51,842 bases of DNA from Patescibacteria group bacterium (GTDB lineage: Bacteria; Patescibacteriota; 4484-211), in the NCBI GenBank assembly GCA_018818265.1, contig JAHISN010000078.1, positions 1 to 51,842 on the forward strand. Reading direction: 5' to 3'. The translations under genes were made by a program, and so were the position numbers. A model generated the notes under the pieces. It worked only from the letters and a program-made list of their open reading frames with translations, was not told the DNA's origin and searched no databases. Positions 16 to 46,162 of this stretch are shown here, piece after piece (position 1 is the first letter of the stretch; each line of letters starts with the position of its first letter).

Positions 16-466
16 ATGTCGTCAGCACGTTTAAAAAATTGGAATTATGCAAATAATGGCTACTATTTCACAACCATTTGCGTCCAAAATAGGGGTGGAA
101 TTGGGTGAATTTGTGGTTATGCCCAACCATATTCACGGAATCGTTATTATCAATAATCCCCCGGTGCGGTCGCAATGGAATAATGTAAATAATGTAGAGA
201 CGCAAAATCTTGCGTCTCTACGAAAACGAAAACAACAACCGGGCAACCAATTCGGCCCCCAATCACGAAATTTAGGATCAATTGTCCGCGGATTTAAAAT
301 CGGGGTTAAAAAATGGACAACCATAAACAATGTTGATTTTGCATGGCAACCTAGATATTATGACCATATCATTCGCAATGAGAAATCGTTAAATCATATT
401 CGTCAATATATTACTGAAAATCCCGCAAAATGGGCAGAAGACCGTAACAATCCTGAAAATTTATAG
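16..466 (+). pseudogene. RAYT-like (REP-associated) IS200/IS605-family Y1/HUH transposase, disrupted by an internal deletion plus frameshift
   Basis: Frame 1 from ATG 16 reads MSSARLKNWNYANNGYYFTTICVQNR and stops at 106-108. Frame 2 continues from about 95 with VELGEFVVMPNHIHGIV (HUH motif) and ends WQPRYYDHIIRNEKSLNHIRQYITENPAKW (Tyr helix). The segment normally lying between the two blocks is missing. Confidence 0.6.
194..221 (+). repeat. GTAG-headed perfect palindrome (12-bp stem, 4-nt loop) embedded in the RAYT-like ORF
   Basis: GTAGAGACGCAA-AATC-TTGCGTCTCTAC read directly. It encodes NVETQNLASLR between the HUH and Tyr motifs. Confidence 0.85.
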
Positions 467-1475: not shown

Positions 1476-2674
1476 CCACACAAATTAAATGTCCCCACTG
1501 CAATAAGCTGTTTGAGCCGACGGAGGCATATAAGCATGAGCTGGAGGAGAGATTGCTTAGTGAAGCTCAAGCAAAGCATCAAAAAGAGGTTGAACAGCTA
1601 AAGCGCGAGAAACAGGAACTTACTCAGTCCAAAGAAAAAGAGATTGAGGAAGTTAAGAGAAAAACCGCGGAAACTGTCCGTAAAGAGGCTGGAGATAAAA
1701 TTAGGCGAGAATTGGAAACTAGAATCACTTCAACACAGGAAGAGGCGGAAGCTCGCGAGAAACAAAATAAAGAACTTCAAGATCAACTTAAAGATATGTT
1801 CAAGCAGATGCGCGGGCTTAAAGACGAAAAAGATAAACTGTCTATTGAGTACGAAAAGAAGTTATTGGAAGACCAAGATAAAATCAAACAGGCTGCCAAA
1901 GAAGAGGTTCGAGAGGAATTGGATATGAAAATAGCTGAAAAGGATAAGAAATTGAACGATGCTCTCAAGGCTAATGAAGAGTTACGCCGTAAATTGGAGC
2001 AAGGCTCTCAGCAACTTCAAGGCGAAGTGCAAGAATTAAAATTGGAAGAATTATTAAAAGAGGCATTCCCTTTTGACGAGATTAAGGAAGTGCCAAAAGG
2101 TGTCAGCGGCGCCGACACTCTCCAGATAGTCCGTACCCAGACAGGTGTTGCTTGTGGTGCTATCCTTTGGGAATCTAAACGAACAAAAAACTGGTCGCCC
2201 GGCTGGATACAAAAACTTAAGGAAGATCAACGAGCGATTAAGGCGGAATTAGCGGTGCTAGTATCGACAGCTTTGCCTCAAAGCGTCCGTTCTTTCGGGA
2301 TGATAGAGTCTGTATTTGTAACTGATTTATCGTCTGCTTTGAATGTTGCGCATCTACTAAGGCTGCAACTGATGAAAGTACACTCGGCTTATGTGGCAAA
2401 CAGCAATAAAGCAACAAAGGCGGAGGTGGTCTATAACTACCTTATTAGCAATGAGTTTACGCAGAGGATTGAAGTTTGGGTTGAGTATTTTAGGAATCGG
2501 CAGGAAAAGCTAAATAAAGAACGCGTTTATTTCAACAAAAAATGGCAAGAAGAAGAAAAGAATATACAAAAAGTAATTGCAAACACAGCGGGGATTTATG
2601 GCGATTTGCAGGGTTTGATAGGAAATGCTTTGCCAAAAGTGAGCTATCTTGAATTACCAGATTCTACAGATTAA
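1472..2674 (+). CDS. DUF2130-type protein (CxxC N-terminus, long E/K coiled coil, C-terminal PD-(D/E)xK-like core)
   Basis: MTTQIKCPHCNKLFEP is followed by about 170 aa of E/K-rich heptad-like sequence. The C-terminal part carries GADTL...ILWESKRTKNWS, a D...ExK pattern. ATGA overlap with the upstream gene. Confidence 0.7.
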   Translation: MTTQIKCPHCNKLFEPTEAYKHELEERLLSEAQAKHQKEVEQLKREKQELTQSKEKEIEEVKRKTAETVRKEAGDKIRRELETRITSTQEEAEAREKQNKELQDQLKDMFKQMRGLKDEKDKLSIEYEKKLLEDQDKIKQAAKEEVREELDMKIAEKDKKLNDALKANEELRRKLEQGSQQLQGEVQELKLEELLKEAFPFDEIKEVPKGVSGADTLQIVRTQTGVACGAILWESKRTKNWSPGWIQKLKEDQRAIKAELAVLVSTALPQSVRSFGMIESVFVTDLSSALNVAHLLRLQLMKVHSAYVANSNKATKAEVVYNYLISNEFTQRIEVWVEYFRNRQEKLNKERVYFNKKWQEEEKNIQKVIANTAGIYGDLQGLIGNALPKVSYLELPDSTD

Positions 2675-2782
2675 AAATGAAGCCGCGGGATTACTCGCCT
2701 CGTTTCGATCGAGCTCGCCTCGCTTCGCGGGTCGAAGCGGGTCTAGACGGGCGGACGGGGCTCCGCCACGTGGCAAGATTTT

Positions 2783-2871
2783 AACTTTTTCCGCCAGAGG
2801 CGGACCAGCCTTTGGCTGGAACTCTCAACTTTTTCCGCCAGAGGCGGATCAGCCCTTGGCTGAAACTTGAA
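2783..2871 (+). repeat. Two tandem copies of a double-hairpin module (TCCGCC-AGA-GGCGGA + YCAGCC-YTT-GGCTGR)
   Basis: Copy 1 is 2783-2826 and copy 2 is 2827-2871. Hairpin 2 differs by a compensatory pair (CCAGCC/GGCTGG vs TCAGCC/GGCTGA). Copy 2 is identical over 45 nt to 19264-19308. Confidence 0.9.
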
Positions 2872-2873
2872 CC

Positions 2874-3350
2874 ATGCCTGATTTATCAGTTCACCTACTC
2901 ACAACCTATATCGCCAATCACAAGCTCAAGTTGGAGCCGTATTTAGTTTTAGTCGGGGCAATGTTCCCCGATATTCTTGGGCGGGTTTTTATTGTGCTCT
3001 GGCCGCAAAATTATGTGCTGAATTGGGTATCTGTACTTCTGCATTCGCCCATACTGGTTTTATTAGGTGTATATTTAGCAGTAATGCTCTTTAGAGAATC
3101 GGAGCGAAAAGTCTGCTTTCTCGCCCTTAGCATCGGCGCTTTGGGACATCTTTTATTAGATATGCTACAGCGGCATTATCGGCCCTCCTATTATTGGTTT
3201 TTTCCCTTTACTTTTAGAACTTTTGAAATCCCCCTATTCTGGTCCGATGAATTTGTCCTCACAATTCCTTTCTGGTTTCTTCTGACTGTGCTAATTTGGC
3301 GCAGAACGCACCGGCAAAGTTTAGTACGCCGTCCGACAAATTTTGATTAG
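2874..3350 (+). CDS. Membrane-bound metal-dependent hydrolase-like protein (YdjM/DUF457-like)
   Basis: Polytopic hydrophobic protein carrying FPDILGR, LLHSPIL and GHLLLDML motifs. Confidence 0.5.
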   Translation: MPDLSVHLLTTYIANHKLKLEPYLVLVGAMFPDILGRVFIVLWPQNYVLNWVSVLLHSPILVLLGVYLAVMLFRESERKVCFLALSIGALGHLLLDMLQRHYRPSYYWFFPFTFRTFEIPLFWSDEFVLTIPFWFLLTVLIWRRTHRQSLVRRPTNFD

Positions 3351-3361
3351 TTAGCAGATGT

Positions 3362-3512
3362 TTGTAGCGGCGGCGCTTCCACGCGATGCCGCATGGCGTC
3401 GTAGCGCCGCGCCACGTCTGACGTGGCCGCGCCAGAAAGGGCCGCCTTCTTCGGATGCTAGGCTTCAGCCAGAGGCTGATCCGCCTTTGGCGGAAAAGCC
3501 TAGCCGCTACAA
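3362..3512. repeat. GC-rich composite REP-like element bounded by TTGTAGCGGC / GCCGCTACAA
   Basis: Left part is GTAG plus the imperfect palindrome GCGGCGCTTCCACGCGATGC-C-GCATGGCGTCGTAGCGCCGC. Middle part is GCCACGT-CTG-ACGTGGC. Right 56 nt (3457-3512) are identical to 46074-46129. Confidence 0.85.
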
Positions 3513-3673
3513 GCTACGGGCAAGTATTAGCCCTTACAGCCCCGGAGGGAAGAACTAATTTCTGCTATAATGACGGAATGGAGGGGTCGCATAGATGGTC
3601 CACTCGCCACGTCGCATGGCGTGGTTGCGCTGTTTTTGTTTGTTGGAGTATCGTGCCCGCCTGTGTTCACTGA

Positions 3674-3763
3674 GGAGGGGTGCCGGAGTGGTTTAACGGG
3701 CTGCTCTCGAAAAGCATGCGCCTCGCAAGGGGCACGAGAGTTCAAATCTCTCCCCCTCCGCCA
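3674..3763 (+). tRNA. tRNA-Ser (anticodon CGA), CCA encoded
   Basis: Acceptor stem GGAGGGG/CCCCTCC, anticodon loop CTCGAAA, long variable arm, T-arm GAGAG-TTCAAAT-CTCTC, discriminator G plus CCA. The backbone resembles what I recall of E. coli tRNA-Ser(CGA) (from memory, no alignment run). Confidence 0.85.
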
Positions 3764-3773
3764 GATAAAACTT

Positions 3774-3802
3774 GCAAAGGCTAATTAGAAGGCAGCCTTT
3801 GC
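3774..3802 (+). terminator. Hairpin downstream of tRNA-Ser (possible terminator)
   Basis: GCAAAGGCT-11 nt-AGCCTTTGC gives a 9-bp stem. The downstream T-tract is weak. Confidence 0.35.
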
Positions 3803-3804
3803 TT

Positions 3805-4070
3805 AGTTGCCTCTGGCCACGTTAGTCCCGAGCTTTGCGAGGGATTTTACCGTGGCCACCGCGTGTCAGACGTGGCTCCGCAAATTTAAACGCGATTTTG
3901 TCGCATTAAGCTGAGCCGCGCGAAACTCTCATCGCGATGAGCCGCGTTTAAATCCGTTGCACGGATTTATCACGCGGCCATAACTAGACCGTGGCCACCC
4001 TGCCACGCTATACACTACGCAATGCTGCATAGCGTTGGCATTGCGTAGCGCATGGCATCGTATTTTGCGA
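3805..4070. repeat. Cluster of GC-rich palindromes and REP-like fragments
   Basis: ACCGTGGCCACC occurs twice. ATTTAAACGCG...CGCGTTTAAAT is an 11-bp inverted repeat. AAATCCGT-TGC-ACGGATTT is a hairpin. CTACGCAATGC-12 nt-GCATTGCGTAG lies at 4015-4048. No credible ORF. Confidence 0.7.
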
Positions 4071-4158
4071 TTGGGCCAACTCGAGGTGGAGTTGTATATC
4101 GCGCGCGCCGCAACGTTAGCATAAATCGAAAAAAAAGGTATGTTAGAATGTCCAAAGC

Positions 4159-4737
4159 ATGAAGATCTTTTTTATTCGCCACGGGGAAGCCATGGACGAT
4201 ATAAATGATGAATATGGAGGATGGCACGATCCCGACCTTAGCCCAAAGGGATGGGTACAGGCCGTGGAGCTTGGTTTAAAGCTTAAGAGCAAAGGTCTTA
4301 AGCCGGATATTATTCTGACTTCTCCCCTTAAGAGAGCAGTTCAAACGGCTCAGGCTATTGGGGAAGTATTGAGCACAGAAGTGGAAGTATTTCAATATAT
4401 TAAAGAAAGAAACACTTACGGTTTACTTTGCGGTTTGAACAAAACCGAGGCAAAGGAAAATTATCCAGAGCTTGTGGAGGCATATGAACAAGACGAAGAG
4501 GTCCTTGGATATGAGTCTTACGAATTTGTTCTTAAAAGGATAAAAATAGCCCTCGAGAAAATCCAGCAGAGGACCGAACAAACGATTATTTGCGCAAGCC
4601 ACAGCAAGTTTCTAAAAGCTATGCTGGAAGAGATCTTCAATAAGTCAATTAAAGACATGAGCAAAAGCGCAATTATTGAGATTTTAGTCAAAGATAGCAA
4701 GCTGGAAATTGTTTCAATGGAGGGTGTAGAAGAATAA
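4159..4737 (+). CDS. Histidine phosphatase (phosphoglycerate mutase-like) family protein
   Basis: N-terminal MKIFFIRHGEA (RHG motif), SPLKRAVQTA, and a late SH motif. Confidence 0.8.
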   Translation: MKIFFIRHGEAMDDINDEYGGWHDPDLSPKGWVQAVELGLKLKSKGLKPDIILTSPLKRAVQTAQAIGEVLSTEVEVFQYIKERNTYGLLCGLNKTEAKENYPELVEAYEQDEEVLGYESYEFVLKRIKIALEKIQQRTEQTIICASHSKFLKAMLEEIFNKSIKDMSKSAIIEILVKDSKLEIVSMEGVEE

Positions 4738-4738
4738 A

Positions 4739-5284
4739 ATGGCAGTAAAAATTACTTATTTTGTCCACGGGACCACAACTGACAACGAACAGGGCATTTC
4801 TTCTGGCTGGTATGATGTAGAACTTTCCGAGCTGGGAATTGAGCACGCTCTCGCTAATAAGGCGGGTACCGAAGGAAAGCAATTTGATGCTGTTTTTTGT
4901 TCCGATCTAAAAAGAGCCGTTGTTTCAGCAGAGTTGGTTTTCAAAGATAAAGTCAAAATTATTCAAGATAAAAGATTGAGGGAGTGTAATTATGGAAAGT
5001 ATAATGCCCAACCTTCCGAAATTGTTGAACCTTTGCAAGAACAGGCTATTACACAGAGATTTCCCGAAGGCGAAAGCTATGAAGATGTAAAAAAACGAAT
5101 AGGTGAATTTCTTGATTTTTTGAAAGAAGATTATGATGGCAAATCAGTTGCAATTGTTGCCCATAAAGCTCCCCAGTTAGCGTTGGATGTTTTGCTTAAA
5201 GGCAAGACTTGGAAGCAAGCATTTGCAGATGATTGGAGAAAAAAGAAAGCATGGCAGCCCGGGTGGGAATATATTATTGAGTGA
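4739..5284 (+). CDS. Histidine phosphatase family paralog with a non-canonical VHG in place of RHG
   Basis: ITYFVHGTTTDN, SDLKRAVVSA, RLRECNYG, PEGESY and VAHKAP follow the family motif order, but the first Arg is Val. Confidence 0.65.
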   Translation: MAVKITYFVHGTTTDNEQGISSGWYDVELSELGIEHALANKAGTEGKQFDAVFCSDLKRAVVSAELVFKDKVKIIQDKRLRECNYGKYNAQPSEIVEPLQEQAITQRFPEGESYEDVKKRIGEFLDFLKEDYDGKSVAIVAHKAPQLALDVLLKGKTWKQAFADDWRKKKAWQPGWEYIIE

Positions 5285-5304
5285 AACTTCGCTCAATAAC
5301 GGAT

Positions 5305-5327
5305 CAGCCCGCCGATTAGGCGGGCTG
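5305..5327 (+). repeat. GC hairpin related to the double-hairpin module
   Basis: CAGCCCGCC-GATTA-GGCGGGCTG, preceded by GGAT as in GGCGGATCAGCCC. No T-tract follows. Confidence 0.6.
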
Positions 5328-5555
5328 GCATACTCCGCTTCAACTATCCGACACACTTTAGTCTTCAAGCATATCTTTAGCTAGCCAAGTGGACTTGGTG
5401 CCTCAGTTCGCCCCTTGGTCTATGCAAGGTAAATCACTGAACAGGTGGTGTGAATGTTCTGGCTTTCGAATGATAGAATACCAGGTGGCGGGACATCAAA
5501 TGCACACGCACGTTAGGCAAAGTTGCCTATTCTCTGAGGGTATAACACACTCGTT

Positions 5556-5966
5556 ATGAAAAAGGCAGTAAAGATCATACTAGTAAACAAAGATAATAAG
5601 GTACTCCTTCAACTAAGAGATGCACAGCATTCTCATTCTGGCAGTTGGTCATTATTTGGCGGCCACATCGACGAAGGCGAAACTCCCGCTGATGCTCTTA
5701 TTCGTGAAATAAAAGAAGAATTGAATCACGAACTAACTAACTTCCAATTCATTAAGAAAACTATGGTTGATACCTTTGGTGAAGTATATTGGTATCAGGG
5801 AATAATGAATGTTGGACTATCAGAATTAACATTAATTGAAGGAGATGACTTTAATTTTTTTACTTATGGTGAGTTATCTAAACTGAAAATCTCTCCTGAA
5901 TCTAAAAAAAGACTAATAGAATTTTTTGAAAAGGAGAATGCGGAGGCGCCACAGCCGCCACAGTAG
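5556..5966 (+). CDS. NUDIX hydrolase
   Basis: Nudix box GGHIDEGETPADALIREIKEELN. Confidence 0.85.
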   Translation: MKKAVKIILVNKDNKVLLQLRDAQHSHSGSWSLFGGHIDEGETPADALIREIKEELNHELTNFQFIKKTMVDTFGEVYWYQGIMNVGLSELTLIEGDDFNFFTYGELSKLKISPESKKRLIEFFEKENAEAPQPPQ

Positions 5967-6024
5967 GATACCCTACGTGGTTTCCTATAAGACCGTGGGG
6001 ATCCACAACTAAGAAACAGGAAAA

Positions 6025-6885
6025 ATGACAAATATTAAAGGTGTAATTTTAGACGTAGATGGAGTTATAGTTGGCGAAAAAATCGGCATTAATTCGCCTA
6101 ATCCCCATCCATCTGTTATAAAAAGACTTAAAGAATTGCACAAAAATGGCATAGGAATAAGTTTATGCACAGGAAAGCCTCACTTTGCAATTAGGCAAAT
6201 CATTAGTAACGCTCAGCTCAATAATTTACATATCACCGACGGTGGCGGAGTAATCATTAATCCAATTAATAATGTCATTATTAAAAAACATACAATAACC
6301 AGCGAGCTAGCTAGGCACGTCTTAAAGAAATACTTGGACAATAATGTTTATGTAGAATTTTATACCCCTAAGGGCTATTTTATTCAAAAAGATAAGGTAT
6401 CAAAAATTACAGAGGGCCACACACACGTCTTGCAACAAGAGCCAATTTTACTCGATAACCTGCCTAAAGATTCAGTTCCGCACGAGATTACAAAAATAAT
6501 GCCTATTGCCGAAAACGAAACAGATAAAGAGCGGGTCGCTAGCTTGTTCCAAGATTTTCGGGATAGATTAACACTAAGTTGGGGAGTTCATCCAGTTATA
6601 TTGCCTCTACAGTTTGGAATTATTACCGCGCCGGGGATATCCAAAAAGCAGGGCGCTATTAACATATCAGAAGCCTCTAAAATCTCTTTTGAGAATATGT
6701 TAGGAATTGGCGACAGCAAGAGTGACTGGCAGTTTATAGAATTATGTAAATATGCAGCCGCAATGGGTAATGCCAGTCTAGAACTTAAAGACCTTGTTTT
6801 AACAAAAGGCAAAGATTGTTCTTTTATCGGCCCATCAGTTGATGAACACGGAGTCTTGAAAATTCTGGACCATTTTTTGGGCTGA
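6025..6885 (+). CDS. HAD-superfamily hydrolase, Cof-like (subfamily IIB)
   Basis: Motif I ILDVDGV, a cap-domain-sized insert, and motif IV GIGDSKSDWQF. Confidence 0.75.
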   Translation: MTNIKGVILDVDGVIVGEKIGINSPNPHPSVIKRLKELHKNGIGISLCTGKPHFAIRQIISNAQLNNLHITDGGGVIINPINNVIIKKHTITSELARHVLKKYLDNNVYVEFYTPKGYFIQKDKVSKITEGHTHVLQQEPILLDNLPKDSVPHEITKIMPIAENETDKERVASLFQDFRDRLTLSWGVHPVILPLQFGIITAPGISKKQGAINISEASKISFENMLGIGDSKSDWQFIELCKYAAAMGNASLELKDLVLTKGKDCSFIGPSVDEHGVLKILDHFLG

Positions 6886-6927
6886 TTGATATCGAGTTAC
6901 CGCAAAACAAATTTACATAGTCCCTTG

Positions 6928-7032
6928 TTGTAGCGGTTGAAGAACACGATCCTTTCTAACGCGGCGCTGCGACGCCATGCGCTACGCAATGCTGCATAGC
7001 GTTGGCATCGCGTGGAAGCGCCGCCGCTACAA
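6928..7032. repeat. GC-rich composite REP-like element bounded by TTGTAGCGGT / GCCGCTACAA
   Basis: The right part is the reverse complement of the 3362-3415 palindrome and carries an extra 23-nt segment. A fragment of it recurs at 14307-14337. Confidence 0.8.
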
Positions 7033-7043
7033 GTATTCATAAA

Positions 7044-7066
7044 GCAGAATAAATTCTGCTATTACA
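7044..7066 (-). repeat. REP-like 23-nt hairpin (stem GCAGAAT)
   Basis: GCAGAAT-AA-ATTCTGC followed by TATTACA. Confidence 0.85.
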
Positions 7067-7099
7067 AGCAAGAAAGAATGGTATTTCCTGATTTTTCAC

Positions 7100-7339
7100 A
7101 TGAAATCTTTAATTCTCACCCTCATCCGTTTTCATCAACGACACTTATCTTCTTCCGCTCACTGGTTAGCTCGAAGTGTTGGCCTTAGTGAAGTAGGATG
7201 TCGGTTTACGCCGCGATGTTCCGAATATACCTATCAGGCCATAGAAAAATATGGCCTGATAAAGGGCGGCTGGCTGAGTTTTAAGCGTATCATCCGCTGC
7301 CATCCCTTTAGTCGCGGCGGCTATGACCCAGTCACGTAA
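7100..7339 (+). CDS. yidD: Membrane protein insertion efficiency factor YidD
   Basis: [45 protein letters not shown]. Confidence 0.9.
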
Positions 7340-7386
7340 AACGAAAATGTATATGGCCCTAATATAGCTACCCTGAATCAAATTCA

Positions 7387-7409
7387 TGTAGTAGCAGAAT
7401 TTATTCTGC
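7387..7409 (+). repeat. REP-like 23-nt hairpin (stem GCAGAAT)
   Basis: TGTAGTA followed by GCAGAAT-TT-ATTCTGC. Confidence 0.85.
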
Positions 7410-7436
7410 GTATATTAAGGGTTAATTGTTTGAATC

Positions 7437-7459
7437 GCGAAATGAATTTCGCTACTACA
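7437..7459 (-). repeat. REP-like 23-nt hairpin (stem GCGAAAT)
   Basis: GCGAAAT-GA-ATTTCGC followed by TACTACA. Confidence 0.85.
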
Positions 7460-7494
7460 AAATATTACCTTTTGTTTTGAGTTAGCTGTAGCTA

Positions 7495-9144
7495 CTACTT
7501 ACGAATATCTTTTATTTTCGCCTCCACGCTTGGTAATTCAAAGTAATCGTTCTCCTCCAGTTGATAGGCTACATCAACTGACTCCCCTTCATTAATTTCT
7601 TGGTTTAAATGACCCAAAGAAAAACCAATAGCAGAAATAGCCGTACCCGTTTCCGGGTCCTGCAAATTTAGTTTGAGATGCCGCCCGTCACTGCCAACGG
7701 TGCGGATATTAAAAGCGCGAACCTGGCGGCTGGCAAAAACCGGGGATGGGTTGCCAATCCCGTGCGGTTCCAATTTTTTGAGCAAATCAACAAGTTCCAA
7801 ACCCGCCTGCGGCAGTTCAAGTTCAAGGTCAATTTTCAAGACGGGCTTGCTCTCCCGCAATGAAGTTTCTTTTTGCCCTAACTCTTGCACCCGCTGGCGG
7901 AATTCATCTAAGTGCTTGGTACGTAGACTAAACCCGGCGGCCATAGCGTGCCCACCGCAACCAATAAGTAAGTCATCCGCTTGATGTAAAAAGTCAACAA
8001 TGTTAAAACCTTTTATTGACCGGGCCGAACCTTTGGAAACCTCTTCCTTTTGAGAAATAGCCAAGGAAGGTAAAAAGAATTTTTCAGTAACCTTTGCGGC
8101 AATTAAACCAATAATGCCTTCGGGCCAGTCGGAATGAGTCAAAACTAGAATGTTTTGCATCTCCGTATCAACCATTTTTTCGGCCTGACTGGTTGCCTGC
8201 ATAGTCAGATCCTGACGGCGGGAGTTGAGCTCTTCCAAATGTTGAGCCAGCTGGCGTGCCAGGTCACGATTGTGAGTGGCTAGTAAACGCAGACTGTCTA
8301 AAGCGTGGCCTAGGCGGCCCGAAGCATTGAGCCGCGGCCCAATAAGCCATCCCAGGTGATAGGGTGTAAATTCCTTGCCGTCAATTTTTGCCAGTTGGTA
8401 AAGCTCTTGCAGACCAGGGCGGGCGGTTTGGGATAAAATTTTTAATCCCTCAGCCACTAGCCCGCGGTTGTAACCAGTTAGGGGAACACAATCGGCCACT
8501 GTGGCTAGTGAAACCAGTTCCAAAAACTCCTCGGCGCTGGAATTCAGCAAACGAGCAGACAGTAACCAGGCAACGCCAGCGCCGCTCAGTTCGGTAGTAT
8601 GTAAAAGAGCATCTACGGAAGGCAGGCGCGCAGGCGGCAAATGATGATCAGTTAGAATAACTTGCCCACCATCATGTCGGAACTTCTCTAATTCTTTTGC
8701 GGAAGAAATACCGCAGTCCACAGTAATAAGTAATGGCGGCTGAACAGAAAGGCTCCGGCTAACTTTTTTAACTTCCTGCAGTGAAGCAGTTGAAATTCCA
8801 TAACCATGTTTCTCGCGGTGAGGAATTAGCGGCCGCACCAAAGGATAATTGAGACGACGATACAAAGTTTCCCATAGAATTGCAGTCGCGCAAATTCCGT
8901 CCACATCATAGTCGCCGTGAATAACAATGGGCCGATTTTGCCTAATTGCCTGATTAACTAATCCTTCGGCCTTAACCAGTTCAGCTTCGCTAAGCAATTG
9001 ACTAACCAGTTGCTGATTTACCTGCGGGTTTAAAAACTCCTCGCTCATTGATTCATTAACTCCGCGGTTTTTCAAAAGCAGATGTAAGATTTTTTCGGGG
9101 GAGAGATTTTGCGTTGGGGTAGGGTTGATAATCTGCCAGTACAC
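7495..9144 (-). CDS. recJ: Single-stranded-DNA-specific exonuclease RecJ
   Basis: DHH motif IHGDYDVDGICATAIL, DHH/DHHA1 architecture, GTG start. Confidence 0.9.
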   Translation of the reverse strand: MYWQIINPTPTQNLSPEKILHLLLKNRGVNESMSEEFLNPQVNQQLVSQLLSEAELVKAEGLVNQAIRQNRPIVIHGDYDVDGICATAILWETLYRRLNYPLVRPLIPHREKHGYGISTASLQEVKKVSRSLSVQPPLLITVDCGISSAKELEKFRHDGGQVILTDHHLPPARLPSVDALLHTTELSGAGVAWLLSARLLNSSAEEFLELVSLATVADCVPLTGYNRGLVAEGLKILSQTARPGLQELYQLAKIDGKEFTPYHLGWLIGPRLNASGRLGHALDSLRLLATHNRDLARQLAQHLEELNSRRQDLTMQATSQAEKMVDTEMQNILVLTHSDWPEGIIGLIAAKVTEKFFLPSLAISQKEEVSKGSARSIKGFNIVDFLHQADDLLIGCGGHAMAAGFSLRTKHLDEFRQRVQELGQKETSLRESKPVLKIDLELELPQAGLELVDLLKKLEPHGIGNPSPVFASRQVRAFNIRTVGSDGRHLKLNLQDPETGTAISAIGFSLGHLNQEINEGESVDVAYQLEENDYFELPSVEAKIKDIRK

Positions 9145-15337: not shown

Positions 15338-15483
15338 AAGTTAAAAGTGAAAAGTTGCTGAAGTTTACCAGAGTTTAGAAGTTGTCTAATCCGTGGTTGC
15401 AAACACCCATTAAGCACCATGAGGGTTTCTTTGAATATAACATTTCTAACTTTTAACTTTTCATTTTTAACTTTTAACTTGAA
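15337..15483 (+). repeat. Long imperfect hairpin built of AAGTTAAAAGT words (rpsQ-rplN spacer)
   Basis: Left arm GAAGTTAAAAGTGAAAAGTTG. Right arm CTAACTTTTAACTTTTCATTTTTAACTTTTAACTTG, ending 2 nt before ATG 15484. Confidence 0.8.
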
Positions 15484-15852
15484 ATGATCCAAACTCATAG
15501 TCGATTAAATGTTACAGATAATAGCGGAGCCAGAGAGGTTATGTGCCTCTCCATTCCCGGGCACAGCAGAAAAGTTTATGCTGGTATTGGAGATATTATT
15601 TCAGCCGTAGTTAAATTGGCTTCTCCAAATGGGACTGTTTCCAAGGCCGAGATTGTAAGAGCTCTAATAGTACGAACAAGAAAAGAAAAACGTCGCACGG
15701 ACGGTTCTCATGTGCGTTTTGATGATAACGCAGTGGTGATTATTGACAAAAAGAGAAACCCCGTCGGGACACGCGTCTTTGGTCCAATTGCTCGAGAAAT
15801 CAAAAACCTAGGTTATGATAAGATTGCATCTTTGGCACCGGAAATCGTATGA
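15484..15852 (+). CDS. rplN: 50S ribosomal protein L14
   Basis: MIQTHSRLNVTDNSGAREVMC. Confidence 0.97.
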   Translation: MIQTHSRLNVTDNSGAREVMCLSIPGHSRKVYAGIGDIISAVVKLASPNGTVSKAEIVRALIVRTRKEKRRTDGSHVRFDDNAVVIIDKKRNPVGTRVFGPIAREIKNLGYDKIASLAPEIV

Positions 15853-15860
15853 TTTGCTTT

Positions 15861-15941
15861 CTAGCCTTTTAGCTTCGCTAGCTTATTAGGAATACCTAGT
15901 GAAGCTAGTAAGTTAATGAAGCTAATGAAGCTAATGAAGCT
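15861..15941 (+). repeat. AGCT-word hairpin (rplN-rplX spacer)
   Basis: Left arm CTAGCCTTTTAGCTTCGCTAGCTTATTAGG. Right arm CCTAGTGAAGCTAGTAAGTTAATGAAGCTAATGAAGCTAATGAAGCT, running into ATG 15942. Confidence 0.85.
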
Positions 15942-16265
15942 ATGACAACAAACAAACTCGGAATCAAAAAGGGCGATAAAGTTCAAGTTATTACCGGGAA
16001 CTACCGCGGCAAACAAGGAGTTGTAGAGCGCGCACTGCCGAAAGAGAGGAAGGTTGTTGTTTCGGGCATTAACATCGTTAAGAGACATATGAAACCGCGC
16101 GGACAGCAAAAACCCGGTGGCATTATTGAAATAACCAAGCCCATTGATGTATCCAAGGTTATGTTCGTTTGTCCGAGTTGCAGCCAAAAAACACGAATCG
16201 GATACGACGCGAAAGGAAAAGAAAAGCATCGTATTTGCAAGAAATGCGGCAAGACAATTAGCTAA
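15942..16265 (+). CDS. rplX: 50S ribosomal protein L24 (with C-terminal CxxC...CxxC)
   Basis: KKGDKVQVITGNYRGKQGVV (KOW) and CPSC...CKKC. Confidence 0.93.
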   Translation: MTTNKLGIKKGDKVQVITGNYRGKQGVVERALPKERKVVVSGINIVKRHMKPRGQQKPGGIIEITKPIDVSKVMFVCPSCSQKTRIGYDAKGKEKHRICKKCGKTIS

Positions 16266-16355
16266 TTAGCTTATAGCTTGATTAGCTTTTTAGATGTACC
16301 CATCAGTCTAACTAAACTAATAAGCTAATGAAGCTAGTAAGCTAACGAAGCTAAC
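16262..16355 (+). repeat. AGCT-word hairpin (rplX-rplE spacer)
   Basis: Left arm CTAATTAGCTTATAGCTTGATTAGCTTTTTAG. Right arm ACTAATAAGCTAATGAAGCTAGTAAGCTAACGAAGCTAAC. Confidence 0.85.
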
Positions 16356-16358
16356 AAA

Positions 16359-16910
16359 ATGTCTCGACTTAAAGATCTATACCAAAAGAAAATAGTTCCT
16401 GAACTCCAAAAAGAACTTGGCCTCTCAAGTTTCTATCAAGTGCCGCAATTATCAAAGGTTGTCTTAAATATGGGAGTGGGAAAAGCAGTAAAGGACAAAA
16501 AGGAATTAGAAGAGGCCGCGGCAGACTTAAGAGTGATTACTGGACAGCAACCAGCAATTACTCGCGCGAAAAAATCAATTTCGAGCTTTATGCTTCAAGC
16601 AGGGATGCCTATCGGCTGTATGGTTACGTTAAGACGCCAGAGGATGTATGAATTTTTGGATAAACTGTATAATATCATCTTACCTCGCACGCGTGATTTT
16701 CATGGCCTCGAGGTTAAAGGCTTCGATGGTCAGGGAAACTATTCTCTGGGCTTAACCGAACAAACTGTTTTCCCTGAAATTGATCCCAACAATGTTGCCA
16801 AAATCCGCGGGTTACAGATAACAGTTGTTACTACAGCAGGCAACAATCAAAAGGCGGAGTTATTGCTGAGAAAGTTAGGATGCCCATTACAGAAGCGTGA
16901 AGAAAATTAA
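16359..16910 (+). CDS. rplE: 50S ribosomal protein L5
   Basis: [21 protein letters not shown]...[15 protein letters not shown]. Confidence 0.96.
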
Positions 16911-17513: not shown

Positions 17514-17648
17514 AAGAAGTTAAAAGTCAAAAGTCGTAGTTCAAAATTGAAAACTACCACAGGGTTTTCTAGTCCTGGGTTATTCTTACTAATTTTGAAT
17601 TTTGCATTTCAACTTTGCACTTTGCATTTTTAACTTTGAATTTGAAAT
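17514..17648 (+). repeat. Long imperfect hairpin of AAGTTAAAAGT / TTGAATTTTGCA words (rpsH-rplF spacer)
   Basis: Left arm 17514-17557 includes the GTAG-headed hairpin GTAGTT-10 nt-AACTAC at 17536-17557. Right arm 17589-17648 ends at ATG 17649. Confidence 0.8.
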
Positions 17649-18200
17649 ATGTCTAAAATAGGAAAACAACCCATCACTATACCAAAGAACGTCGAAGTCT
17701 TAATTGATGGCCAAAGTGTTGTTATTAAAGGCACTAAGGGAGAGTTAGCCTATACATTACCGGAACTTGTAAACGCAGGGATTGAGGATAGTGAATTACG
17801 GGTTAATCGTGTAAATGATCTACCCACAGCCAAGGCGCTTCACGGAACCTGGCGGGCGCATTTGCAAAATGCAGTTATTGGTGTTGATAAAGGTTATGAA
17901 AAAATATTGGAGCTGGTGGGCTTGGGCTATCGAGCAGAATTAAAGGAGGGCAAATTGGTTTTACTGGTTGGGTTTTCCCATTCGGTAGAAGTTAAAATTC
18001 CCGAGGGCATTAAAGCATCTGTAGTCAAAAACAAGATATCCGTTGAAGGAATTGATAAACATCAAGTCGGCCAGATAGCCGCAATCATTCGCCGAGTCCG
18101 CCCACCGGAACCATATAAAGGCACCGGAATTCGCTATGCGGACGAAGTAATTCGACTTAAGCCCGGTAAGTCAGCCAGGGCGGTAGGAGCGGGAACATAA
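17649..18200 (+). CDS. rplF: 50S ribosomal protein L6
   Basis: MSKIGKQPITIPKNVEV...PEPYKGTGIRY. Confidence 0.96.
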   Translation: MSKIGKQPITIPKNVEVLIDGQSVVIKGTKGELAYTLPELVNAGIEDSELRVNRVNDLPTAKALHGTWRAHLQNAVIGVDKGYEKILELVGLGYRAELKEGKLVLLVGFSHSVEVKIPEGIKASVVKNKISVEGIDKHQVGQIAAIIRRVRPPEPYKGTGIRYADEVIRLKPGKSARAVGAGT

Positions 18201-19211: not shown

Positions 19212-19263
19212 AGGTAATTAGGTCCAGCTGAACTGGACCGGTAATTTTCAACTTTTAATTTTT
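19212..19263 (+). repeat. GGTAATT-flanked 7-bp hairpin plus AACTTTTAA words (rpsE-rplO spacer)
   Basis: GGTAATTA [GGTCCAG-CTGAA-CTGGACC, 19221-19239] GGTAATTT, then TTCAACTTTTAATTTTTAAC. Confidence 0.75.
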
Positions 19264-19308
19264 AACTTTTTCCGCCAGAGGCGGATCAGCCCTTGGCTGA
19301 AACTTGAA
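19264..19308 (+). repeat. 45-nt double-hairpin module identical to 2827-2871
   Basis: AACTTTTTCCGCCAGAGGCGGATCAGCCCTTGGCTGAAACTTGAA, ending 2 nt before the rplO ATG. Confidence 0.9.
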
Positions 19309-19310
19309 AC

Positions 19311-19760
19311 ATGCGCCTACATAATTTACCAAAAATCACCCAACGGAAAAAGAAACTTCTTGGGCGTGGGCCGGGAAGCGGCAAAGGAAAAACATCCGGA
19401 CGAGGCATGAAAGGGCAAAAAGCCCGATATAAAGTCCGTCCCGGCTTTGAAGGCCGCCAGCCCAGATTGACCAAGCGATTACCTAAACTAAGAGGGAAAG
19501 GGAGATTGTTGCCGCACAAGCCCAAACCAAAGACAATTGATATTGCGCGCCTCAACATATTCCGCGCCGGTTCACGGGTAACACCGGAAATACTGGTAGA
19601 AAAAGGCCTAGTTAAAAAAATCCCCCCTGCCGGCATTAAAATACTTGCCAAGGGCAAACTTGAAAAAAAACTAACCTTGGAAGGCTTTAAGATCTCTAAG
19701 GGCGCGAGAGAGCAGGTGGAAGAGTTGGGAGGGAAAATAAAGGAAATCTCAAGCGACTAA
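19311..19760 (+). CDS. rplO: 50S ribosomal protein L15
   Basis: MRLHNLPKI...GRGPGSGKGKTSGRGMKGQKAR. Confidence 0.95.
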   Translation: MRLHNLPKITQRKKKLLGRGPGSGKGKTSGRGMKGQKARYKVRPGFEGRQPRLTKRLPKLRGKGRLLPHKPKPKTIDIARLNIFRAGSRVTPEILVEKGLVKKIPPAGIKILAKGKLEKKLTLEGFKISKGAREQVEELGGKIKEISSD

Positions 19761-21856: not shown

Positions 21857-21893
21857 AAAGGTTTGCGCGTTCTGATTTTTTCACATAAAACAT

Positions 21894-21930: not shown

Positions 21931-23082
21931 ATGATCAGATCCGAGTTTATGGCCGCCGTTAATCAAATTTGCTCCGAGCGAGGCATTGAGCCCAAAGTAG
22001 TTATCGAGACACTTCAGAAGGCTATCCATGCAGCTTATCGTAAAGATTACGAAGATCATGAGGACGTTGAAGTCCAAATCAGCAAAAAAACCGGCGCCGT
22101 GAGAATACTGGAAGAAGGTAAAGATATCACTCCTCCAGGATTCGGCCGCATCGCGGCTCAAACAGCCAAGCAGGTTATTTTGCAGGGTGTGCGGGAGGCT
22201 GAAAAAGATGCCATTATTAATGAATACCAAGACAAAGTGGGTACGATAGTTTCGGGAATGCTTCAGCGGCGCGAGGGTCAAGACTGGATTGTTGGGTTAG
22301 GCCGTACAACAGGGACCCTGCCCCGTGAGGAACAGATTCACTACGAAGATTACCGCAACAACCAACGCTTATTCTTTTATATTAAAGAGATCAGTGAACA
22401 ACACCACAAAACGCAGATTGTTCTTTCGCGCTCTCACCAGGAACTTCTATGCGGTCTTTTTAAGCAAGAAATCCCCGAGATAGCAAATAAAGCTATTGAA
22501 ATTAAAGCGGTAGCCCGTGAGCCGGGGCACCGATCGAAAGTCGCCGTTGCCTCAACCCAAGACGGAGTTGATGCCGTTGGTTCCTGCGTAGGTCAGCGTG
22601 GTATACGGATACAAGCAGTAACTGATGAGCTTAACGGTGAAAGGATAGATGTTATTTTATGGAACGAAGCTCCAGAAAAGTTTATCTCCGCCGCCCTTTC
22701 GCCTGCTGATGTAACTAATATTAAAATCAACGAAAAAGAGGGTACCGCCTATGTACAGGTGCCTGATGATCAAATTTCTCTAGCTATTGGGAAAAAGGGA
22801 CAAAATGCCCGCTTGGCGGCAAAACTAACTGGCTGGCGCATCGACATCCACGGTGAAAAGGAATCGTTAGAACTGTCCCCGGCAGCAGAAGAGGGGTTAG
22901 AAGAGAAAGTTCCTGCCAATATCTTAACCCGTTTAGAAAAAGCCGAAACTAGCTGGGAAGAAGCAACAAAAATGAGCAGTGAAGAGCTTTCAGCCCTAAA
23001 GGGTGTTGGGGCGAAAACTGTGGAAAAAATTAGAGAGATTATAGAAAACTCAATCCCTAACGAAGTAAAAGAAGGTGAATGA
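21931..23082 (+). CDS. nusA: Transcription termination/antitermination factor NusA
   Basis: N-terminal domain, S1 and two KH domains (GSCVGQRGIRIQAV, AIGKKGQNARLAAKLTGWRIDI). Confidence 0.95.
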   Translation: MIRSEFMAAVNQICSERGIEPKVVIETLQKAIHAAYRKDYEDHEDVEVQISKKTGAVRILEEGKDITPPGFGRIAAQTAKQVILQGVREAEKDAIINEYQDKVGTIVSGMLQRREGQDWIVGLGRTTGTLPREEQIHYEDYRNNQRLFFYIKEISEQHHKTQIVLSRSHQELLCGLFKQEIPEIANKAIEIKAVAREPGHRSKVAVASTQDGVDAVGSCVGQRGIRIQAVTDELNGERIDVILWNEAPEKFISAALSPADVTNIKINEKEGTAYVQVPDDQISLAIGKKGQNARLAAKLTGWRIDIHGEKESLELSPAAEEGLEEKVPANILTRLEKAETSWEEATKMSSEELSALKGVGAKTVEKIREIIENSIPNEVKEGE

Positions 23083-24850: not shown

Positions 24851-24890
24851 CGGCCATCCTTACCCCTTCCTCACCACCCCAAAAGGATGG
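24845..24890 (+). repeat. GTAG-headed hairpin overlapping the infB stop codon
   Basis: TTGTAGCGG (the TAG is the infB stop), then CCATCCTT-21 nt-AAGGATGG. Confidence 0.7.
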
Positions 24891-26544: not shown

Positions 26545-26564
26545 TGTAGTAGCGCAATCTTGCC
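26545..26564 (+). repeat. REP-like variant TGTAGTAGCGCAATCTTGCC
   Basis: Identical 20-mer at 31981-32000. Confidence 0.8.
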
Positions 26565-26631
26565 GTGTGCCTGAAAGGGTGATACCCTGCGTGGTTCATC
26601 CTCACGTGATACTGCGGTCATTGCGACAAAT

Positions 26632-26654
26632 TGTAGTAGCGCAATTTATTGCGC
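26632..26654 (+). repeat. REP-like 23-nt hairpin (stem GCGCAAT)
   Basis: TGTAGTA followed by GCGCAAT-TT-ATTGCGC. Confidence 0.85.
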
Positions 26655-26676
26655 GCAGAATGAATTCTGCTATTAC
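26655..26676 (-). repeat. REP-like hairpin (stem GCAGAAT), abutting the previous copy
   Basis: GCAGAAT-GA-ATTCTGC followed by TATTAC. Confidence 0.85.
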
Positions 26677-27046
26677 GGGTAGAAATCGTAATTATACCCC
26701 GCTTCAATCAATTAATTCGTTTGTAAATAGAATACGCCCCCATTTAATTGAGTGAAGCTGACACAGCGCTATCAAACCACATAATGTCTTTTCGTATCAC
26801 CAAGCCCAAGCCTAGTGGTTATTAACTTTACTTTCGCCCCATAGTGGGCTATAATGAGTGTATGAGGTGTTAAAAGCACCTCAAATGGCACCTTATATTG
26901 TAAATCAAAAAAAGGCGTCCTTGCGATGTAAATGAGGCTAATATACTCCTTTATGTTGCTGGGCCGCTTTTCGCACCATTGTGGGCGAGATCCTATTAAT
27001 GGATTCTAAGCGGCTGCGCTTTTCACATAAAATGGGAGGTTTTAAA

Positions 27047-27427
27047 ATGAAGCATTTTTCTCAGCTTTGGTCAGGTTTAGCGATCATTGTCATGGTGGCG
27101 GCGATTGCCTTGGTCGGTGGAGAACCCGCCGAAAGTCCGGAAGGGTTCACGCGCTGGCCCCCCGCGTACGAGGAGGGGGGAACTATCAATGTGTCGCCGC
27201 CTTGGACCGCCCGCTGGCACACGGGCCTGAACGTCGCCGGCGAGGTGCCAGTAGTCGTCTTCTACGAGGACGGCAGTGGAAATCACGTCACTGCTGACTA
27301 TGACTACGTCGGCAAAGGTGAGTACCAGATCGAACTCACCGATGCCACCCTAGTTTTCCGGGTCTTCCCGTATGAGGGCCCAGGTGGAGTGAAGTTTGAC
27401 CTCTACTACCGTGTAGAGACCAAGTAG
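27047..27427 (+). CDS. Hypothetical small secreted or anchored protein (very high-GC gene)
   Basis: GGGAGG SD 7 nt upstream of ATG 27047. Signal/anchor MKHFSQLWSGLAIIVMVAAIALVGG. A sampled 60-nt stretch is 72% GC. Confidence 0.6.
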   Translation: MKHFSQLWSGLAIIVMVAAIALVGGEPAESPEGFTRWPPAYEEGGTINVSPPWTARWHTGLNVAGEVPVVVFYEDGSGNHVTADYDYVGKGEYQIELTDATLVFRVFPYEGPGGVKFDLYYRVETK

Positions 27428-27438
27428 CAGCAAAAGGA

Positions 27439-27517
27439 AGGGCGGGATGCGTCTCTAATTCAGTTGCCTAACTAGCAATGAGTTATGAGGCGCAATATCC
27501 CGCCCTCTTCTTTTTTG
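27439..27517 (+). terminator. Rho-independent terminator with a long interrupted stem
   Basis: AGGGCGGGAT...ATCCCGCCCT, with inner GCGTCTC/GAGGCGC pairing, followed by CTTCTTTTTT. Confidence 0.6.
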
Positions 27518-27563
27518 CACACATTTTTTCAAGAATCCAAAATTGGAAATCACTGGACACTGC

Positions 27564-27586
27564 GCGAAATTAATTTCGCTATTACA
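27564..27586 (-). repeat. REP-like 23-nt hairpin (stem GCGAAAT)
   Basis: GCGAAAT-TA-ATTTCGC followed by TATTACA. Confidence 0.85.
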
Positions 27587-27593
27587 ATTAGCC

Positions 27594-27616
27594 TGTAATA
27601 GCAGAATTCATTCTGC
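27594..27616 (+). repeat. REP-like 23-nt hairpin (stem GCAGAAT)
   Basis: TGTAATA followed by GCAGAAT-TC-ATTCTGC. Confidence 0.85.
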
Positions 27617-27690
27617 GCATATCTACCTCTGGAAACGGCGGTCCCACAACATATTGCCATGGCATGCTTTAGGGTCGCGCTTGCATGTAA

Positions 27691-45897: not shown

Positions 45898-46021
45898 AAT
45901 GTTTTAATATCCGAAACTCGAATATCGAAATTCTAAACAGTAAGCAGTGGGATTGCGATGCTATATAGTAACCGCAAAACAAACTTACCACATTTTTAAT
46001 TAACATCCAGTCTATGGGTGC

Positions 46022-46129
46022 TTGTAGCGGCGGGTCTTTAGACCCGCGTCAGGAGAGATTACGTCCTTCTGTCGCTAGGCTTCAGCCAGAGGCTGATCCG
46101 CCTTTGGCGGAAAAGCCTAGCCGCTACAA
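46022..46129. repeat. Composite REP-like element bounded by TTGTAGCGGC / GCCGCTACAA
   Basis: Left part is GTAG plus GCGGGTC-TTTA-GACCCGC. The right 56 nt are identical to 3457-3512. The outer flanks CAAAACAAACTTAC (about 45972) and CATGTAAATTTGTTTTG (46139-46155) are also inverted. Confidence 0.85.
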
Positions 46130-46162
46130 CAAGAAACCATGTAAATTTGTTTTGAATCTTGG

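Follow-up and report, generated by a model that had tools for sequence, protein, structure and literature searches.

Repetitive extragenic palindromes (REPs) that carry a GTAG tag often occur as inverted dimers with structured spacers downstream of genes (PMC3733652), and their mobilization by REP-associated tyrosine transposases (RAYTs) has been established in E. coli and Pseudomonas (PMC3479197, PMC8266576, PMC3116915). REP/RAYT systems have been studied almost only in Proteobacteria. The stretch of DNA analysed here, contig JAHISN010000078.1 of assembly GCA_018818265.1 (51,842 nucleotides; hereafter the window), comes from a reduced genome of the candidate phyla radiation (CPR) and harbours a rich GTAG-REP population, including three intergenic composites referred to as A, B and C. 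We propose, with a probability of roughly 0.75, that these composites are pairs of GTAG REPs that are, or were, copied on single-stranded DNA (ssDNA) by a RAYT-type HUH enzyme, their complexity being due to nested hairpins. One of these hairpins, a 30-nt module termed here the twin, appears from its cross-phylum distribution to be an independent module, separate from the REP.

Anatomy of the composites

An earlier note on this DNA had located three composites with common termini and had taken them for units assembled from modules, akin to miniature transposable elements with inverted repeats (MITEs) or to REP doublets forming hairpins (REPINs). Their sequences and coordinates were borne out by the sequence check:

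3362..3512, plus strand: composite A, consisting of head, REP hairpin, second hairpin, spacer and 56-mer (from sequence and folds)
3362-3369, plus strand: head of A, TTGTAGCG
3370-3410, plus strand: REP hairpin of A, GCGGCGCT...AGCGCCGC, which nests the hairpin CGATGCC-GCAT-GGCGTCG
3411-3427, plus strand: second hairpin of A, GCCACGTC-T-GACGTGGC
3428-3456: spacer of A
3457-3512: 56-mer of A
6928..7032, minus strand: composite B, in the orientation opposite to A
46022..46129, plus strand: composite C, with its head at 46022-46029 and the REP hairpin GCGGGTC-TTTA-GACCCGC at 46030-46047
46048-46073, plus strand: variable spacer hairpin of C
46074-46129, plus strand: 56-mer of C

The interiors are indeed GC-rich, with a GC content of 66% in A, 59% in B and 57% in C against 43% for the window. 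The 10-nt terminal inverted repeats TTGTAGCGG/CCGCTACAA are real (in B, which begins with TTGTAGCGGT, they are complementary at nine of ten positions); they are the heads of GTAG-tagged REPs and not the ends of a DDE-type transposon, TTGTAGCGG being one head variant. No target-site duplication was found at these termini, and at the outer 26-nt terminal inverted repeats (TIRs) described below only TA is a possible duplication. TTGTAGCGG occurs exactly eight times in the window, and six of the eight sites are the six composite termini, while the remaining two are solitary, at 24845 (the end of an open reading frame, ORF) and 33182 (within an ORF).

The 56-mers at 3457-3512 and 46074-46129 are identical, as the earlier note had claimed, with 0 matches expected from shuffled sequences. 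In composite A, the 56-mer is made up of the REP hairpin GCTAGGC/GCCTAGC with the twin in its loop, followed by the inverted head CGCTACAA (3505-3512). The computed ssDNA fold of the 56-mer agrees with the suggested three-way junction (-18.8 kcal/mol, z = -4.66); for A, B and C as wholes, the fold is a multibranch junction that the terminal repeat closes (z = -6.41, -3.99 and -6.17, respectively). The alignment also reproduces the suspected correspondence between the left palindrome of A and the reverse complement of B: 3362-3390 and 7004-7032 are 100% complementary, and 3362-3413, aligned by eye with the reverse complement of 6961-7032, differs by a single 23-nt indel, AACGCTATGCAGCATTGCGTAGC (6981-7003 in the window), which is a small hairpin in its own right. 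Read on the minus strand, B proceeds from a head through the REP hairpin of A, with the nested 23-nt hairpin, and a 25-nt spacer to an inverted head; A and B share the order GTAGCGGCGGCGCT...AGCGCCGC, insert, CGCTAC, with the insert at the same position in both. Removal of 46048-46121 from C leaves a perfect palindrome, TTGTAGCGGCGGGTC-TTTA-GACCCGCCGCTACAA. The composites, the 56-nt identity, the three-way junction, the 23-nt indel and the outer inverted repeat described below all go well past what chance would produce. Contigs assembled independently (Logan SRR6514274) match the window with 100% identity and stop within the repeats; the elements are therefore no artefacts of assembly and behave as repeats.

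A family of GTAG-tagged REPs

The composites belong to a larger family of the general form TGTA(G/A)(T/C)(A/G) followed by GC-stem-TTTA-stem-GC. The arrangement TGTAG-nn-GC plus hairpin resembles the Pseudomonas REP, TGTAGGAGC plus hairpin. The head motif TGTARYRGC is found 21 times in the window against 2.45 expected, a count that was never reached in shuffled sequences. Across the window, a relative (L124) and the sister contigs (L148-L153), 23 of 52 heads directly precede a perfect 7-8-bp GC...GC hairpin, whose loop is TT, TC or TA between flanking T and A and is effectively TTTA. Nine stems were observed, all of them perfectly compensated (GCAGAAT, GCGCAAT, GCGAAAT, GCGTAAT, GCGGACT, GCGGATT, GCAAAAT, GCGGGTCT and GCGGTGCT). 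These 23 perfect examples are short palindromes with a GTAG tag at one end, as expected of REPs (20-40 nt), and the 21 heads in 52 kb, together with eight intergenic copies of the 56-mer, represent a multi-copy and mainly extragenic repeat. The AT-rich stem GCAGAAT stands behind both TGTAGCG and TGTAGTA heads (L153, 300 and 331), so that the GC-rich and AT-rich elements are regarded as a single family. The sister contigs are rich in its members, with 11 heads across 9 kb of L149. Outside the composites, the window contains:

7043-7067, minus strand: AT-stem REP (AT-stem REPs extend over 7043..7460)
7387-7409, plus strand, and 7436-7460, minus strand: pair of AT-stem REPs, heads outward
26545, plus strand: REP of the family (REPs of the family extend over 26545..27618)
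27563-27587, minus strand: REP of the family
27594-27618, plus strand: REP of the family
26632-26680: two-hairpin REP unit bounded by TTGTAGTA/TATTACGG
31981 and 48870, both plus strand: further REP copies

Heads-outward pairs, with folds closed by the heads, are formed by A, B, C, 7387-7460 and 26632-26680, and correspond to the inverted pairs able to form a larger hairpin that characterize REPINs, or HH-TT dimers. The repeat anatomy of the composites, with head and hairpin, inverted pairs and structured spacers, is that of the published GTAG-tagged REPs (PMC3733652).

Nested modules and further copies

Small hairpins are found within other hairpins. The twin is nested in the TTTA loop of GCTAGGC/GCCTAGC and the 23-mer in the loop of CGATGCC/GGCGTCG; a module starting with TCCACGCGATGC directly follows the 5' arm in composite A and at L149:6018, and another, starting with CTTGCCGTGT, follows GCGCAAT or GCGAAAT at 26545, 31981 and L150:5037. 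The mosaic structure is therefore attributed to the repeated insertion of small hairpins into hairpin loops or between head and stem. Filled and unfilled states are represented by the 23-nt indel, by the palindrome restored by excision in C and by a leader that occurs both split by the twin and unsplit; flanks joined precisely without the insert would read, for example, TTTTTAACTTTT|AACTTGAAAC (19270/19301), GCTAGGCT|AAAGCCTAGC or GACCCGC|CGCTACAA.

The further copies of the 56-mer that the earlier note had proposed to look for exist, contrary to the outcome by which its reading would have been refuted: a search of the Joint Genome Institute (JGI) metagenomes with its last 24 nt yielded six more loci, all on other contigs of metagenome Ga0180007. 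The eight copies are all intergenic, lie in either orientation relative to the neighbouring genes and are invariant (8/8), only 24 of the 56 nt having been fixed by the search, while the spacer hairpin, linkers and TIRs vary among them and the flanks differ by 9-13%. Such invariance points to constraint, conversion or recent replacement of the module, and the contigs that carry it may derive from one population or from a few related ones.

A RAYT-family gene remnant

The left end of the window carries a gene related to the transposases of REP systems:

16..466, plus strand: remnant of a RAYT-family Y1/HUH transposase gene (profile, PDB and homologue matches)
474-1475: RhuM-family gene, directly 3' of the remnant

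Two frames are used by the remnant: the N-terminus (16 to about 96), whose 26 residues, MSSARLKNWNYANNGYYFTTICVQNR, start at nt 16, is read in frame 1, and everything else (47-466) in frame 2. Both the HUH motif (MPNHIHG) and the RAYT-type Tyr motif (WQPRYYDHIIRNE...YITENP) are present. ORF 47-466 matches the Pfam family Y1_Tnp with 26.2 bits (cutoff 23) and the NCBIfam 'REP-associated tyrosine transposase' with an E value of 1.3e-12 and 47.9 bits, under the cutoff of 80, and its sole PDB match is E. coli TnpA-REP bound to its REP (4ER8). Its homologues, 185-230 amino acids long and 55-66% identical, come from Patescibacteria, Omnitrophota, Ignavibacteria, Nitrospirae, Zixibacteria and others, and several of them carry the JGI name RayT. 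The copy in the window is considered to be a remnant because it is deleted and frameshifted and because the defect is common to a strain with an 89% identical product (ERZ27247128); the differences are too few for an informative ratio of nonsynonymous to synonymous substitution rates (dN/dS). Its presence suggests that an enzyme of the class by which REP systems are defined is, or once was, encoded in this genome, where an intact copy may lie elsewhere.

This RAYT clade possesses a REP of its own. At four unrelated loci, GTAGAGACGCAAAAT.TTGCGTCTCTAC is the palindrome that flanks the intact RAYT gene, and a copy of it is also present within the gene, where it is translated in frame as VETQNFASL. 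In the window remnant the in-frame REP, GTAGAGACGCAAAATCTTGCGTCTCTAC, is located at 194-221, this REP type being internal only, and no GTAGAGACGCAAAAT.TTGCGTCTCTAC was found in the 113 nt upstream of the RAYT gene of the near-identical strain L136, the sequence of which ends 89 nt past that gene. The clade REP lies between the HUH and Tyr motifs (194-221 in the window; also L137, L143, L154 and L155), and its sequence is nearly constant across genomes of 32-46% GC. No TTGTAGCGGC-type REP was seen beside any RAYT gene examined.

Origin of the composites

The reading of the composites as REP pairs starts from what the DNA itself displays, namely their anatomy, copy number and intergenic location, the compensatory stems, the RAYT-family gene and the nested filled/unfilled relations. 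The REP unit comprises a head, TGTAG(C/T)(G/A), followed by a hairpin of GC-stem, TTTA loop and stem-GC. Two inverted units, or equivalently one long GTAG...CTAC palindrome, enclose extra small hairpins, and the insertion of these into loops or between head and stem would give rise to the mosaic look and the multibranch fold. In the proposed mechanism, a RAYT-type Y1/HUH transposase would recognize the GTAG head and the hairpin, cut adjacent to them and rejoin, acting on ssDNA, and the twin would be an independent nested element that inserts cleanly at TY|RA. By analogy with E. coli and Pseudomonas, it is a RAYT that presumably moves these REPs, and the REPs may still be active. The original notion of MITE/REPIN-like units assembled from modules gains support from the REP heads, the RAYT-family gene, the six further copies and the nested hairpins.

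Several observations weigh against this reading. The RAYT gene in the window is frameshifted and internally deleted, having lost about 37 codons of the intact homologue P0123; strain L136 encodes an 89% identical product with the same defect, and neither the 52 kb of the window nor 54 kb of sister contigs yielded an intact RAYT. As the REP of the RAYT clade (GTAGAGACGC...) is unlike TTGTAGCGGC in stem and head extension, a cognate pairing of this RAYT with TTGTAGCGGC is at most putative. Eight identical 56-mers beside diverged flanks may reflect selection or gene conversion instead of recent transposition, and the C-type unit described next has TIRs of its own, which make a second mobilization route possible. 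Finally, the relatives provided no empty-site allele: synteny at site A is lost in the ydjM relatives, and the intergenic DNA of the SecY relatives is not alignable.

The second route concerns a larger unit built around composite C:

45964..46154, plus strand: full C-type unit (about 190-215 nt)
45964-45989: outer TIR TATAGTAACCGCAAAACAAACTTACC, followed by a 32-nt linker, composite C and an 8-nt linker
46138-46154: degenerate right TIR CATGTAAATTTGTTTTG

According to this explanation, the C-type composite is a MITE of about 215 nt that is moved via its outer 26-nt TIRs by a DDE-type transposase with duplication of TA, by cut-and-paste as proposed for Correia elements, the GTAG REP pair being mere cargo. 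The unit reads TA|TAGnnnCCGCAAAACAAAYTTACC, 32-nt linker, REP pair, TAAGGGACTA, GGTAAATTTGTTTTGCGGnnnCTA|TA. Its whole architecture, including both TIRs and the linkers, is common to four copies (window C, L149, L151 and L152) that are 87-91% identical over about 190 nt, and every complete end reads TA-TAG...CTA-TA. The TIR core CAAAACAAAYTTAC occurs three times in the window (6903, 45975 and, on the minus strand, 46141) against 0.08 expected, and one such TIR is found on B, whose left flank (6900-6927) equals the right-hand outer TIR of the C-type unit; the outer inverted repeat that had been noticed around C and beside B is therefore genuine. On the other hand, outer TIRs are missing from composite A, from L153, which has the REP pair, and from L148 and L150, which have the 56-mer alone; no longer duplication is common to the C-type copies, and TA may simply form part of the TIR. 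Neither the window nor L148-L153 revealed a transposase or insertion sequence (IS) with such ends, and the AT-stem REPs would be left unexplained by this route, which we consider rather unlikely as the origin of the composite.

A role for the composites as functional structures kept by the host, such as stabilizers of 3' untranslated regions, processing or termination signals or protein-binding DNA, appears to be quite improbable. Under such a role, the identity of the copies would stem from purifying selection or gene conversion and not from ongoing mobility. All copies do lie between genes, usually just past a stop codon, variation is confined to linkers and spacers and spares the 56-mer and the REP stems, and such roles have been reported for REPs elsewhere (PMC3733652). 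However, the composites show no T-tract terminator signature and no Rfam family, and their orientation to the upstream gene differs among A, B and C; moreover, the REP stems change by Watson-Crick compensation only, with no wobble asymmetry, and close relatives live without the composites. Intrinsic terminators and known RNA families were both rejected as candidates, as no terminator was called at the composites in a scan of 2600-7600 and no T run follows any terminus on either strand, and as Rfam gave 0 matches in the window at gathering score and only tRNA-Ser at E <= 10 in 2650-4160.

The twin hairpin

The twin consists of two abutting 15-nt hairpins and occurs in five copies in the window:

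3465..3494, plus strand: TCAGCC-AGA-GGCTGA + TCCGCC-TTT-GGCGGA, in the REP hairpin loop of composite A
46082-46111: identical copy, in composite C
2790-2819 and 2834-2863, minus strand: two stand-alone twins in the AT-rich leader upstream of a ydjM-like gene
19271..19300, minus strand: stand-alone twin that splits the leader TTTTTAACTTTT|AACTTGAAAC before rplO

The leader before rplN (15464-15487) is the rplO leader without the 30 nt, and the two form a filled/unfilled pair in one genome. This AT-rich leader, TTTTTAACTTT(T/G)AAYTTGAAAT(G), stands directly before start codons at 15464-15487, 17627-17651, 19260-19313 and 2823-2876, and in two of these four cases is split by the twin exactly at TT|AA.

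The pattern CAGCC-NNN-GGCTG-R-TCCGCC-NNN-GGCGGA, in which the stems are fixed and stem variation is unsampled, was run against one genome per species and retrieved the twin from at least 118 loci across many phyla, about half of them in Patescibacteria among the matches listed. Its other hosts include Ignavibacteria, Omnitrophota, uncultured Gammaproteobacteria, Bdellovibrionales, Planctomycetota, Verrucomicrobiota, Bacteroidota, Elusimicrobia, Leptospira and Binatia; viral contigs gave only 11 matches in 2.9 million. The base preceding the pattern pairs with R, as T-A in 91 of the matches listed, C-G in 38, C-A in two and T-G in none. With loops of NNA and TNN, the consensus is YCAGCC-NNA-GGCTGR + TCCGCC-TNN-GGCGGA, flanked by T-Y before and R-A after, which corresponds to insertion at TY|RA with no target duplication.

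Conserved genes are invaded in frame. Among the matches listed, the twin is in frame in 33 long ORFs, where its ten codons mostly read S-A-x-G-G-P-A-x-G-W. In Tgt it forms a clean 10-residue insertion relative to PDB entry 2ASH, and further insertion sites immediately precede conserved motifs in TsaD, DNA polymerase I, MiaA, DnaJ and the CCA-adding enzyme; GAPDH was discarded as an example of a clean 10-codon insert, the site being a variable loop. Twins are likewise present in T-loop (TTC|RAAT) and D-loop copies of tRNA genes. According to ARAGORN, the twin-bearing copies are fragments beside intact tRNAs, often tRNA-Ser, and the twins are therefore considered to reside in displaced tRNA fragments and not in working genes. 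A tRNA intron was rejected, as excision in silico with 0-6 extra bases restored a complete tRNA at no more than a single locus (L037). One twin lies in an apparent 23S rRNA 3' region of an uncultured gammaproteobacterium (L040, 4563-4592). In Candidatus Moanabacter, a verrucomicrobial metagenome-assembled genome (L020, L034, L098 and L104), the twin is central in a repeat of at least 150 nt, which is present in at least five copies, each next to the same ORF of 540-570 amino acids. Rfam contains no family for the twin (window and 2650-4160 scans), and no description of the twin, its peptide or the RAYT REP was found in the literature, although absence from a library is no proof of novelty.

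How the twin moves can be addressed only tentatively. With a rather low probability, it may be an undescribed ultra-small mobile element that inserts at TY|RA without duplication, is tolerated as ten codons in essential genes, resides in fragments of tRNA genes and is tied functionally to small GIY-YIG nucleases; if so, a REP/RAYT-like partnership would have been built on a different nuclease fold, with REP hairpin loops as one landing site. As a rival to mobilization by a RAYT, the twin could be moved by, or be part of, small single-domain GIY-YIG cassettes, a possibility to which we attach the same rather low likelihood; tRNA genes would be among the places where the nuclease cuts TY|RA, and the end of the cassette would be marked or formed by the twin. 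Indeed, the GIY-YIG gene (Pfam PF01541; 79-99 amino acids, single-domain) is the only recurrent neighbour, at 13 of 129 twin loci among the matches listed. Of 18 GIY-YIG genes, 14 have a twin no more than 150 nt away, where about 10% would be expected within the same loci (p of about 1.5e-11), and the position of the twin relative to the gene is fixed, either at -37 to -55 upstream or immediately past the stop codon. At L066, L085, L060 and L038, it is in a displaced tRNA 5' fragment adjoining the cassette that the twin is found. On the other hand, the window has five twins yet no GIY-YIG gene, most twin loci are without such a gene within 8 kb, and GIY-YIG genes and twins may both simply favour tRNA genes. 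As a separate observation, GIY-YIG genes occur within tRNA genes (often tRNA-Ser), sometimes in tandem (L038, L060, L066, L078 and L085); the 3' end of the gene re-creates the 5' part of the tRNA, and the old 5' fragment stays upstream with the twin.

It is less probable that the twin is a minimal element of the IS200/IS605 style, reduced to its left and right end hairpins and moved on ssDNA by a Y1 transposase, which could possibly be that of the RAYT clade of the window. The structure would suit such an element, as two near-identical abutting hairpins (TCAGCC and TCCGCC stems) are present without a TIR or a target duplication, a short T-Y motif precedes the insertion point, which is often located in another hairpin's loop, and the RAYT clade and the twin share several phyla, including Patescibacteria, Omnitrophota and Ignavibacteria. 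However, no Y1 gene lies near any of the 129 twin loci, the twin is devoid of a GTAG head, and there is a constraint on the 3' side of the insertion, too (R-A), which is atypical for IS200/IS605.

Genomic context

The window is a bacterial chromosome segment with dnaA, recF, holA, a ribosomal-protein/secY block and one tRNA-Ser. The best named relatives of its SecY belong to candidate division CPR3 and other Patescibacteria (74-78% identity), and the source is a CPR3-like member of the Patescibacteria. Nearly all spacers in the window are enlarged by repeats. In the SecY relatives (over 13-21 kb), the ribosomal-protein genes are tightly packed, and neither REPs with head and hairpin nor twin hairpins were found; the nearest relatives are thus without the GTAG-REP population of the window. 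The gene order adk-map-infA-rpsM is uninterrupted in relatives; the window has nusA, infB and about 16 kb of further genes between adk and rpsM (21931-40850), among them genes for ClpB, a histidine kinase and a Mg-chelatase-like ATPase. Encoded at the right end (49173-51804) are a DUF4143 ATPase and an AbiEii toxin, the latter preceded by a partner ORF.

Other repeats were also noted. Arrays of 9-nt words, TAGCTTnnn on one side and AAGCTAnnG on the other, form inverted sets in the ribosomal-protein spacers and after dnaA (15863-15942, 16267-16362, 40768-40846, 41259-41346, 41773-41860 and 48766-48851) and would fold into long AT-rich hairpins immediately upstream of start codons. A 12-nt tandem repeat, CCATTGCCGAAA, is present in about nine copies at 34389-34496, upstream of ORF 34575-34970, and the motif GTTCTGATTTTTTCACATARAA occurs at 21869-21890 (after adk), 24894-24915 (after infB) and 7083-7103 (beside composite B). 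A tRNA-Ser-like 5' fragment, GGAGGGGTCGCATAGATGGTCC, at 3581-3602, 70 nt upstream of the real tRNA-Ser (3674-3763), recalls the displaced tRNA fragments next to GIY-YIG cassettes in other phyla, and the 350 nt past the tRNA-Ser (3764-4110) constitute a GC-rich hairpin island.

Comparison with known systems

The composites are closest to the GTAG REPs, bacterial interspersed mosaic elements (BIMEs) and REPINs that are associated with RAYT (TnpA-REP) in E. coli, Pseudomonas and Stenotrophomonas (PMC3733652, PMC3116915, PMC2817692, PMC3479197), with which they share the head and hairpin. As in those systems, GTAG stands 5' of a GC-closed hairpin, inverted pairs and structured spacers are found in an extragenic position past stop codons, stem variants are compensated and a RAYT-family HUH/Tyr gene is present in the genome. 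In contrast to classical REP/RAYT systems, the host is a reduced CPR bacterium, the RAYT copy is broken, the REP of the RAYT clade is itself contained, in frame, in the transposase gene, and small hairpins are nested at up to three levels. Classical REPs are, furthermore, lineage-specific, whereas one nested module is here common to several phyla. The composites illustrate that mosaic repeats can arise when one small hairpin after another inserts into an existing hairpin's loop.

The C-type unit resembles the Correia elements, MITEs of Neisseria, in its length (about 100-200 nt), its 26-nt TIRs starting with TATAG, the TA at its junctions, the folding of the whole into a long hairpin and the lack of a transposase of its own. 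It differs from them in having no homology beyond TATAG, in its interior, which is a GTAG REP pair, and in that only four full copies were seen.

The twin is similar to the Rickettsia palindromic elements (RPEs) as a palindromic selfish insert found in frame in conserved protein genes and in RNA genes, but measures 30 nt instead of 100-150 nt, occurs in many phyla instead of one genus and always spans exactly ten codons. With the palindrome-associated elements derived from IS200/IS605 it has in common the end hairpins, the absence of TIRs and duplications and a one-sided short target motif; unlike these elements, it is only 30 nt long, contains no guide or linker sequence and has no associated TnpA among the loci found. 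The GC clusters of yeast mitochondria likewise consist of small GC-rich hairpins that nest in one another and spread through AT-rich genomes, coding regions included. Yeast GC clusters are, however, organellar and eukaryotic, and the twin insert keeps the reading frame, so that there is no sign of translational bypass.

These repeats break short-read CPR assemblies, and the in-frame inserts lengthen annotated proteins by ten residues. As the same 30 nt are precisely inserted in conserved genes and at tRNA loci in hosts as distant from one another as Patescibacteria, Omnitrophota, Ignavibacteria and Proteobacteria, the question arises how they came to be there and which enzyme moves the twin. 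In comparison with what has been described, the composites represent a REP/REPIN system of a known kind in a phylum where such systems have been little studied, and the twin is possibly a new micro-element.

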